Shown here piece after piece: positions 10,349-55,745 of a stretch of DNA of 64,000 bases (positions are counted from its first letter, which is position 1; every line of letters begins with the position of its first letter). The position numbers were made by a program, and so were the translations under genes. The stretch comes from Escherichia coli (lineage in GTDB: Bacteria; Pseudomonadota; Gammaproteobacteria; Enterobacterales; Enterobacteriaceae): the NCBI RefSeq assembly GCF_044647545.1, contig NZ_CP172818.1; one strand, given 5' to 3'. The notes beneath the pieces were generated by a model that did not search any database, was not told the origin of the DNA, and saw only the letters and a program-made list of their open reading frames with translations.

Positions 10349-10531
10349 ATGGTGCCGCCCGCTCGCGATGCTGATGGGATCTATCACGTCATGTATGTCG
10401 CAAAATTTGAAGAAGCGGTTTACGTATTGCATTGTTTTCAAAAAAAAACACAAACTACCAGTCAATCGGAAATTGATTTAGCCAAACGACGCTATAAAAA
10501 ACTTGTTCAGGAGGGGAAAAATAAAAATTAA
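10349..10531 (+). pseudogene. C-terminal remnant of a RelE/ParE-superfamily (HigB/Gp49-like) toxin
   Basis: 60-aa ORF ...GIYHVMYVAKFEEAVYVLHCFQKKTQTTSQSEIDLAKRRYKKLVQE carries the YVLHxFQKK motif of this toxin family; a stop lies immediately upstream in frame and no intact N-terminus or antitoxin is present. Confidence 0.45.
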
Positions 10532-10800
10532 AACCTTTGATAGTGGGTGGGATACGGTGAAGGACCCCCCTGAAGGAGGGGAAAAATTGGGGTTCGCGCC
10601 GGGTTGTAAAGAATAATTAAAAATGGAATGGAAAAAAAAGGGTTAGACCGGGTCGGAGAAATTTTCTTTTGGGGGGGTCACACACCCCCGTATTTTAAAT
10701 TCGACAAGGGGAAATCTCAATTTTTTATATATAAATAAATATAATATTATGGGCGCATATGGAGGTTCATATAATAAATATAAAAAATTAAAATACACAT
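10532..10800. repeat. Low-complexity, homopolymer-rich block (probable sequence artifact or insertion)
   Basis: Runs such as gaaggacccccctgaaggaggggaaaaattgggg, tttgggggggtcacacacccccg and AT-only stretches; composition unlike flanking E. coli DNA; no coding or RNA signature. Confidence 0.6.
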
Positions 10801-35813: not shown

Positions 35814-36044
35814 TGACGATGCCGGGCGTGGGTTGTTGGCGTCCGGCTTTATATCAAAACAACTCTTATTTATTGATAATTAAGATTAACCTCCGCCATT
35901 AAAATATGGGCACTGACGAGCACTCGTTTCTTTCTTTTTTACCATCCCATACTTATCTTCCTGAATATGTTCATATGCCAAAATATCTTCTAATACTTTC
36001 GACCTACCGGTTTATGAAATACACTGATGAAGATTTTTACTTAC

Positions 36045-36545
<501 letters not shown>

Positions 36546-38666: not shown

Positions 38667-39080
38667 CTTACCTTCCCCCATTAAATACCAACGACACGCT
38701 CTGGTGTTTAAATATAATAATGGCATGATTATTATATTTGAATAGGATTATAATAAATGTTCTGTACAACATTTCCTACATAAGTAGGAATTACAGACAC
38801 GGATGCCCTTCCGGGTAACCCCATGGGGGGGTTAATATATTTTTAATAGTATATTGAAGATGCCACTGTTTAGTTGAATATTAGGTATATGCTCTTTTTT
38901 GAAATTTATCGGTGGCTGCCGTTAGTATTCGCTGTCCCCATTGCAAGCTCCTGGTGGTAACCACTGAATCTTCCATACTTGAACTGACTTTTTATCCTCC
39001 GACTTTCATCCTGTTCTGACTCTACCTTTTCTTTTCTGCTCTACACTATCTACAGACCAATCATAAAGGCACATACGATC

Positions 39081-54334: not shown

Positions 54335-54470
54335 CCTGCCATAACGTGAAGAAGCAATGACCTGGTGGTCCGTGACTTCCCTACGCTGGCATTATCCAGA
54401 TCAGGTGATACGGGTATTTCTCAGCCTTCACGCAGAAGGGCACCCCGAGTCGTTTGGTTGCGATAATAAA
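54335..54470 (-). promoter_or_regulatory. TPP (thi-box) riboswitch in the thiM leader
   Basis: + strand 54374-54446 is the reverse complement of GGGGTGCCCTTCTGCGTGAAGGCTGAGAAATACCCGTATCACCTGATCTGGATAATGCCAGCGTAGGGAAGTC, the thiM aptamer with its CUGAGA element. Confidence 0.8.
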
Positions 54471-54548: not shown

Positions 54549-54821
54549 TTATTTGATATAAGAATCCAGCACCTTCAGAACGACATCCAGATCTTCTTCA
54601 CGTTTTAGCTCATCCCCCTGGTGAACGATGTGTTCCGTCAGATGGCCTTTAATCACTTCCCGCATCAGACCGTTTACCGCGCCACGGATAGCAGCAATCT
54701 GTTGTAAAACTGCAGCGCATTCGTGCGGCTCGTCGAGCATTTTCTTGAGCGCCACGACCTGGCCCTGAATCTTACTGGCACGCGCTTTCAGTTTCTGTTT
54801 ATCACGGATGGTATGAGACAT
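54549..54821 (-). CDS. rcnR: Ni/Co-responsive transcriptional repressor RcnR (CsoR/RcnR family)
   Basis: 90-aa [55 protein letters not shown]... Confidence 0.9.
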
Positions 54822-54869
54822 GGCAACACCTGGTTAACAAGAATATGAAAAATCATAGCACTATTAATC

Positions 54870-54904
54870 TACTGGGGGGTAGTATCAGGTACTGGGGGGG
54901 AGTA
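54870..54904. promoter_or_regulatory. Two RcnR operator sites (TACT-G6-N-AGTA) in the rcnR-rcnA intergenic region
   Basis: tactggggggtagta at 54870-54884 and tactgggggggagta at 54890-54904. Confidence 0.7.
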
Positions 54905-54941
54905 GAATCAGATTGCCGAATTAATACTAAGAATTATTATC

Positions 54942-55745
54942 ATGACCGAATTTACCACTCTTCTTCAGCAAGGAAATGCCTGGTTCTTCATCCCCAGCGC
55001 CATCTTACTTGGTGCGCTTCATGGCCTGGAACCAGGGCACTCAAAAACGATGATGGCGGCGTTTATCATCGCCATCAAAGGCACCATTAAACAGGCGGTG
55101 ATGCTCGGACTGGCAGCAACCATTTCGCATACCGCGGTGGTCTGGTTGATTGCCTTTGGCGGGATGGTAATCAGCAAACGTTTTACTGCTCAATCTGCAG
55201 AACCGTGGCTCCAGTTGATTTCCGCGGTGATCATTATTGGCACCGCGTTCTGGATGTTCTGGCGTACCTGGCGCGGCGAACGCAACTGGCTGGAGAATAT
55301 GCACGAGCACGAGCACGAGCACGAGCATGATCATGAGCATCATCACCATCACGAACATGGCGAGTATCAGGATGCCCATGCACGAGCCCATTCCAATGAC
55401 ATTAAAAGACGATTTGATGGTAGAGAGGTCACCAACTGGCAAATTTTGTTATTTGGCTTAACCGGTGGCCTTATCCCCTGCCCGGCAGCAATTACCGTGC
55501 TGTTGATTTGCATTCAGTTGAAAGCCCTGACACTGGGCGCAACACTGGTCGTCAGTTTTAGCATTGGCCTGGCGTTAACGCTTGTCACCGTAGGCGTTGG
55601 CGCAGCAATCAGCGTTCAGCAGGTCGCAAAACGCTGGAGCGGATTTAACACTCTCGCTAAACGCGCCCCCTATTTTTCCAGTCTGTTGATTGGCTTAGTT
55701 GGTGTGTATATGGGCGTACATGGCTTCATGGGCATAATGCGATAA
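54942..55745 (+). CDS. rcnA: Nickel/cobalt efflux protein RcnA
   Basis: 267-aa membrane ORF with His-rich cytoplasmic loop (HEHEHEHEHDHEHHHHHEHGEY). Confidence 0.9.
   Translation: MTEFTTLLQQGNAWFFIPSAILLGALHGLEPGHSKTMMAAFIIAIKGTIKQAVMLGLAATISHTAVVWLIAFGGMVISKRFTAQSAEPWLQLISAVIIIGTAFWMFWRTWRGERNWLENMHEHEHEHEHDHEHHHHHEHGEYQDAHARAHSNDIKRRFDGREVTNWQILLFGLTGGLIPCPAAITVLLICIQLKALTLGATLVVSFSIGLALTLVTVGVGAAISVQQVAKRWSGFNTLAKRAPYFSSLLIGLVGVYMGVHGFMGIMR

Follow-up and report, generated by a model that had tools for sequence, protein, structure and literature searches.

The window, which is the whole stretch of 64,000 nucleotides analyzed here, contains an rcnR-rcnA locus whose 120-bp gap (54822-54941) is bounded exactly by the start codon of rcnR, which lies on the complementary strand and ends at 54821, and by the ATG of rcnA at 54942. 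The rcnR coding sequence (54549-54821, minus strand) encodes a repressor of 90 aa that responds to Ni(II)/Co(II) and belongs to the CsoR/RcnR family; it was identified from its open reading frame, from profile matches, and from the RefSeq annotation of K-12. The protein matched the NCBIfam equivalog NF011613 with 197 bits (cut-off 138) as well as Pfam PF02583. Its translation shows the metal ligand positions His3, Cys35, His60, and His64, together with a RASK motif (residues 14-17) that is presented in the account of PMC3902906 as the counterpart of the DNA-binding RLXR motif of CsoR. The regulated target, rcnA (54942-55745, plus strand), was identified from its open reading frame and profile matches as a 267-aa Ni/Co efflux pump, with 540 bits on the nickel/cobalt efflux model NF007454 and a match to Pfam NicO. 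Downstream of it lies rcnB (55964-56302, plus strand), which encodes an accessory periplasmic protein of 112 aa (Pfam PF11776 RcnB, 67.8 bits). The RefSeq annotation of K-12 C600 gives the gene order thiD, thiM, TPP riboswitch, rcnR, rcnA, rcnB, and yehA, which is the same as in the window, with rcnB in the same position.

Several features of the neighborhood were recorded alongside. The TPP riboswitch upstream of thiM was located at 54361-54457 on the minus strand, and it is annotated at the equivalent place in K-12 C600 and other strains. In O157:H7, two other small genes stand in place of thiMD on the left side of rcnR. The yehA gene (56384-57418, minus strand) is an intact open reading frame of 344 aa here, versus an annotated frameshift in K-12 C600.

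Two sites are arranged in tandem on the plus strand of the gap. Site 1, TACTGGGGGGTAGTA (54870-54884), reads TACT-G6-T-AGTA, and site 2, TACTGGGGGGGAGTA (54890-54904), reads TACT-G7-AGTA, which corresponds to G6 with N = G; both are exact matches to the consensus TACT-G6-N-AGTA. The 5-bp spacer between them (54885-54889) sets a start-to-start distance of 20 bp, or about two helical turns, so that the two sites fall on the same face of the helix. A scan with TACTGGGGGGNAGTA over both strands of the whole 64 kb, with up to 2 mismatches allowed, returned sites 1 and 2 alone. The number of matches expected from 100 dinucleotide-preserving shuffles was 0.11 against the 2 observed, and none of the 100 shuffles reached 2. 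The first-pass annotation had placed two sites of this architecture between rcnR and rcnA, and both strings were indeed found there as the sole matches in 64 kb, with the gene identities and the tandem layout borne out by the profile matches and the exact coordinates of the gap. The observed pair of G-tract sites is real, rightly located, and not a product of chance.

The intergenic region is identical at 120 of 120 bases to that of K-12 C600, K-12 being the background for which binding by RcnR has been described. The motif, the number of sites, their spacing, and the flanking genes are also the same, and the operator itself shows no difference. Of 5,426 complete E. coli genomes, 5,361 contain the gap with an identity of at least 95%, which rules out the absence of the tracts from reference strains, an outcome that the first-pass annotation had named as one that would refute its reading. 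One of the copies found in the E. coli genome search sits on a plasmid record and not on a chromosome. Outside the operator, a comparison of 686 positions of flanking coding DNA (54549-55300) with 13 sampled E. coli strains, K-12 included, gave 15-17 differences for every strain. At this rate about 2.8 differences would be expected in the gap, and its complete identity with K-12 is only weakly suggestive of constraint. The window also differs from K-12 in a shorter His-rich loop of RcnA. This loop, near residue 120, is polymorphic in length; the protein has 267 aa here (HEHEHEHEHDHEHHHHHEH) and 274 aa in K-12, O111, and O121, and it reaches 285 and 291 aa in two O157:H7 strains, which have (DH)n repeats.

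The motif is not new. In three papers, PMC3902906 and PMC7105576 among them, the sequence TACT-G6-N-AGTA and its occurrence twice in the rcnR-rcnA gap are credited to Iwig & Chivers 2009 (J Mol Biol 393:514). A shared operator that represses both rcnA and rcnR was described by Blaha et al. 2011 (Biochimie 93:434), as reported by a paper that cites it. According to the relevant statements of PMC7105576, RcnR prevents the transcription of RcnA and RcnB, the operator moved behind a foreign promoter gave RcnR- and cobalt-dependent control, and it has already been used in synthetic cobalt-inducible circuits. Together, the K-12-identical gap and the literature on the same motif support the RcnR operator reading proposed by the first-pass annotation. 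The G-runs are the already published tandem RcnR operator. The finding is correct, ordinary, and already known, and it is extended here in one small respect alone, namely that a few percent of E. coli strains have a second G-run of another length.

Promoters and the mode of repression

Experimentally determined start sites were taken from a K-12 data set (Kim et al. 2012, PMC3415461, supplementary file 2, Table S1) that gives 51-nt upstream sequences. Three of these 51-mers matched the window exactly; one puts a start site at 54844 on the minus strand, and the other two correspond to 54915 and 54894. The data set is genome-wide and was obtained under non-inducing conditions, with low read counts of 11, 12, and 25. 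The rcnR start site at 54844 (K-12 position 2183841, 11 reads) leaves a leader of 23 nt, and the main rcnA start site at 54915 on the plus strand (K-12 position 2183912, 25 reads) leaves one of 27 nt. A minor rcnA start site was assigned to 54894 on the plus strand (K-12 position 2183891, 12 reads).

Relative to these start sites, the putative extended -10 element of the rcnR promoter, TGCTATGAT, lies at 54852-54860 on the minus strand, with its hexamer at -13 to -8. It is partly conserved, and TGCTATAAT was found in some Citrobacter loci (e.g., L013, L026, and L031). The -10 hexamer of the main rcnA promoter, TAGAAT (54903-54908, plus strand), occupies -12 to -7 and overlaps the AGTA arm of site 2. 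From the start site and this -10 hexamer, a -35-like element would be TAGTAT (54880-54885, plus strand), which lies 17 bp upstream of the hexamer and shares some bases with the right arm of site 1; it resembles TTGACA only weakly. A consensus promoter scan had also returned TTGCCG-16-TATTAT at 54913-54940. This candidate was rejected, since it conflicts with the mapped start sites and leaves no leader before the ATG at 54942, and since TTGCCG is not conserved across other genera.

The operator overlaps both promoters. Site 1 covers -45 to -31 of the main rcnA promoter and -40 to -26 of the rcnR promoter, and site 2 covers -25 to -11 and -60 to -46, respectively. The pair as a whole thereby spans -45 to -11 relative to the rcnA start site and -60 to -26 relative to that of rcnR.

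The arrangement is very probably that of a tandem "type 1" RcnR operator between back-to-back divergent promoters, which represses rcnA(B) and rcnR until RcnR is released by Ni(II)/Co(II). The sequence, its uniqueness in the window, the identity with K-12, the gene identities, the conservation across genera, and the overlap with mapped start sites come from this analysis; binding, stoichiometry, groove contacts, and metal release are taken from secondary citations; and we infer that occlusion is steric and which hexamer serves as the -35. Each site presents a G6 or G7 tract between the 4-bp inverted repeat arms TACT and AGTA. Metal-free RcnR is reported to bind each site with 1:1 stoichiometry and to grip the TACT/AGTA arms in the minor groove, with the unbroken G tract lending the DNA an A-form-like shape open to indirect readout, as the account in PMC3902906 relates from Iwig & Chivers 2009. 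Since both -35 regions are covered by site 1, and the rcnA spacer and half of the rcnA -10 hexamer by site 2, RNA polymerase should be kept off rcnA(B) and rcnR alike while RcnR is bound. Steric exclusion of the polymerase by this geometry would explain how one operator pair can repress both genes. Binding of Ni(II) or Co(II) would then free RcnR from the DNA and allow both genes to be transcribed, in line with what the literature cited here relates.

A type 1 CsoR/RcnR operator, as described in the same source, has one G/C tract, 3-8 bp long, with AT-rich inverted repeats on either side and arms 6-9 bp apart (PMC3902906). The sites in the window have a single unbroken G6 or G7 between TACT and AGTA, with arms 7 bp apart and in tandem, and they do not differ from this class, of which the rcnR-rcnA locus is the defining example. 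Type 2 CsoR operators, such as those of Streptomyces lividans and of B. subtilis CsoR, are likewise G-tract pseudo-palindromes with GTA-type dyads and recognition of an A-form-like shape. By the description in PMC3902906, however, type 2 sites take two tetramers, whereas one unbroken tract binds RcnR 1:1 at the RcnR sites.

These sequences might be read not by RcnR but by another protein, such as FrmR, a paralogous repressor that likewise recognizes G/C-tract sites. Such an assignment could draw on the use of G/C-tract pseudo-palindromes by the whole family, as outlined in PMC3902906, and on the 76.5 bits that the RcnR sequence scores on the FrmR model, a value below the cut-off of 133. Yet the sites accompany rcnR in every locus retrieved with the RcnR query, and the literature assigns them to RcnR. 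We consider recognition by FrmR or another such protein extremely improbable and continue with RcnR as the cognate repressor.

Conservation of the operator across genera

Species-representative genomes were scanned once with the RcnR protein, which yielded 80 loci from Escherichia, Citrobacter, Salmonella, Raoultella, Kosakonia, Rahnella, Hafnia, Erwinia, Edwardsiella, Morganella, and one Vibrio. An element of the site 2 type, TACT[A/G]GGGGGGAGTA, was present upstream of rcnR in 72 of the 80 species loci. Both sites were kept in most of them, and the start-to-start distance of 20 bp was unchanged in nearly all two-site loci. In an alignment of 67 non-Escherichia loci anchored on site 2, site 1 carried 1.62 bits per column, compared with 0.96 for the 5-bp spacer and 0.17-0.46 for the flanks, the latter values being somewhat depressed by the ungapped anchoring. 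For site 2 itself the information content is circular, as this site served as the anchor, and the fraction of loci with site 2 is the meaningful figure. The GAGTAGAAT at the right edge of site 2 is conserved across genera, and so is a TATAGCA/TATACCA element to the left of site 1.

The pattern of conservation also bears on whether the G runs act through non-B DNA, that is, as a G-quadruplex or a cruciform, and not as a protein operator. Two G-rich runs on one strand in the company of short inverted repeats could invite such a reading. An intramolecular quadruplex, however, needs four G runs where there are just two, the inverted-repeat arms are merely 4 bp long, and the conserved features are the arms and their exact spacing, as is typical of a protein site. 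A structural role of this kind is hardly credible next to that of an RcnR operator.

The number of sites varies between loci. A third G7 element with altered arms, AACTGGGGGGGAGTT, was seen on the rcnR side of site 1, some 20 bp away, in L052, L055, L056, L059-L061, L066, L067, and L072, which suggests that a three-site operator may exist in a clade of Kosakonia, Phytobacter, and some Enterobacter. Site 2 alone was intact in L054, L075, L076, and L079-L083 (Enterobacter sp. CC120223-11, Erwinia psidii, Edwardsiella anguillarum, and Morganella), where site 1 is either missing or degenerate; Morganella, for instance, has ACAAAGAGGTAGTG. Judged by this distribution, it seems to be site 2 that forms the indispensable core of the operator. 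In the Escherichia whittamii locus (L011), the start codon of rcnR abuts sequence from within rcnA, and the intergenic operator appears to have been deleted together with the 5' end of rcnA.

Operator G tracts and degraded-looking blocks of the window

The first-pass annotation had set the short G tracts of the operator against an anomalous poly-G block at 36.2 kb, and this contrast held up. The block is part of a low-complexity stretch (36040-36470) with long poly-A runs, a C9 run, and G27 at 36214-36240. When a 1.8-kb query spanning it was searched, 5,423 of the 5,426 E. coli genomes gave a match, in no case one that reached 80% of the query. At best, 77% was covered, in two pieces that span 1,866 nt of the yegQ, yegP, and RelE/ParD region. 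Since the query was never matched at full length and its matches were split in two, the block replaces real sequence, and its appearance is that of corrupted or degraded sequence and not of a biological feature. The G27 and poly-A block has no counterpart in any of the 5,426 genomes, whereas the G6-G7 tracts of the operator are conserved.

A second degraded-looking stretch was noticed at 10420-10800, with AT-rich filler, poly-A runs, and a G7 at 10671; within it, the 80 nt from 10634 to 10713 matched none of the 5,426 E. coli genomes.

The G6-G7 runs at 54.9 kb can serve as an internal positive control for the window, being real, conserved, and functional short G-runs. As a textbook metal-sensor site, the operator has no novelty value of its own, and it confirms ordinary E. 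coli sequence in this part of the window.

Length variants of the G tracts in E. coli

The tracts were typed with queries of 79-81 nt for which exact matches were counted, any single difference falling outside the identity band of at least 99%. The haplotype with G6 at site 1 and G7 at site 2, shared by the window and K-12, accounted for 4,387 exact matches among 5,342 matching genomes, and a further 367 genomes had these tracts plus a C-to-A change at 54909, a position that is not part of the operator. The variants were G8 at site 2 (at least 93 genomes), G6 at site 2 (at least 118), G7 at site 1 (at least 36), and G5 at site 1 (at least 26). Together these six haplotypes account for 5,027 of about 5,342 genomes, and the other 315 or so carry further haplotypes, which include a spacer C-to-T variant, G8 combined with the C-to-A change at 54909, and duplications. 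The canonical G6/G7 pair is present in at least 4,754 of about 5,342 genomes (at least 89%), and in at most about 95% given the 273 variants counted; each ±1 tract allele makes up 0.5%-2.2% of genomes. In this survey of 5,426 complete E. coli genomes, the suggestion of the first-pass annotation that the G-tract length varies between strains proves correct at low frequency. No report of a tract polymorphism, or of an effect of tract length on rcnA, emerged from a search of the literature for homopolymeric tracts in connection with this gene, the one match being an unrelated paper on Salmonella pseudogenes.

Three operator sites were found in 6 of the 5,426 genomes, on various backgrounds. A 20-bp tandem duplication of site 1 and the spacer occurs in N47, N39, EC26, O157:H7 NE 1092-2, and O111:H8 8E; it was read directly in the intergenic sequence of N47 (L090), and its presence in the other four was deduced from full-length matches of 99%-100% to a query with the duplication built in. 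In WW2 (L002) the duplication is 23 bp long. In both N47 and WW2 the region concerned is equivalent to 54870-54912.

The variation is partly inherited, because G8 is common to three O121 isolates and G6 to two O111 isolates. The three O121 isolates were sequenced separately and come from US creek sediment, Canadian flour, and a Canadian patient, with identical flanks; the two O111 strains, 11128 and RM9322, likewise share identical flanks. APEC O2-211 also has G8, and its flanks differ from those of the O121 strains at 8 of 686 positions. O157:H7 EC4115 and UPEC 26-1 also have G6, and they differ from the O111 strains at 10 and 8 of 686 positions, respectively. In other genera, G6 was found in Citrobacter sp. 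R56, and G8 was found in Enterobacter sp. R1 and Morganella morganii Mm1. The recurrence of the same alleles on other backgrounds and in other genera points to recurrent slippage as their likely source.

Some of the ±1 cases are probably assembly errors. The suspected ones are BE2-5 and PE15, in which rcnA is also frameshifted; O157:H7 EC4115, which has G6 where PV15-279 has G7 with identical flanks; and the K-12 derivative ER2683, which shows G6. For comparison, a non-operator G7 run in the yegR-yegS gap (38825-38831) was inspected. The region around it matched 663 genomes, 93 of them exactly, and about a third of the sampled rows were 1 nt shorter, with G6 verified in one strain. This tract is consistent with a freer drift of non-operator G7 runs, as a loose control that offers no clean comparison of rates. 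The G7 at 10671 was unusable as a control tract, since the surrounding stretch has no match in any E. coli genome.

Homopolymeric or repeat tracts within promoter spacers underlie phase variation in several bacteria, as in the poly-C tract of Bordetella fim, the TA repeats of Haemophilus hif, and the poly-C tract of Neisseria opc. The rcn tract is like these in that a homopolymer of strain-variable length lies between the -35 and -10 elements. On that analogy the G runs would mainly be slippage-prone promoter spacers that set the -35/-10 distance of rcnA, with repressor binding as a secondary matter. Two facts would fit: the site 2 tract falls within the spacer of 17 bp in the main rcnA promoter, and G6 and G8 occur on several haplotype backgrounds, with the recurrent slippage that this implies. 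Unlike the phase-variable promoters, however, the rcn tract is short (6-8 bases), has one length in about nine of ten genomes, and is conserved across genera, and there is no evidence of on/off switching. A contingency locus is expected to be highly variable within and between close strains, which is not what was found: at least 89% of E. coli genomes are exactly G6/G7, and the tract lengths are conserved together with the TACT/AGTA arms over many genera, the opposite of such a locus. The spacer reading also leaves the conservation of the arms unexplained, and direct binding of RcnR has been reported in the literature. We judge it very unlikely, and the strong conservation of G6/G7 in E. coli and across genera argues against a role in phase variation. 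The tandem RcnR operator remains the preferred reading of the G runs.

Within that reading, the length of the second tract may still have consequences. As the tract lies within the spacer of the main rcnA promoter, G6 and G8 change both the spacing of the RcnR half-sites (6, 7, and 8 bp for G6, G7, and G8) and the promoter spacer (16, 17, and 18 bp), and an effect on basal rcnA expression or on the induction threshold is plausible. The carriers of the inherited G6 allele are the O111 lineage, some O157:H7, and UPEC 26-1, and those of G8 are the O121:H19 lineage, APEC O2-211, and others. As a tentative and rather doubtful proposal, the site 2 tract could be a mildly hypermutable "tuning" element, in which G6 and G8 would set lineage-specific basal levels or induction thresholds of Ni/Co efflux. 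The rare duplications of 20 or 23 bp, which add a third site, would have the opposite effect, namely tighter repression. The survey of tract alleles is a modest new datum, and it would matter only if G6 or G8 measurably shifts the set-points of Ni/Co efflux in pathogenic lineages such as O111 and O121.
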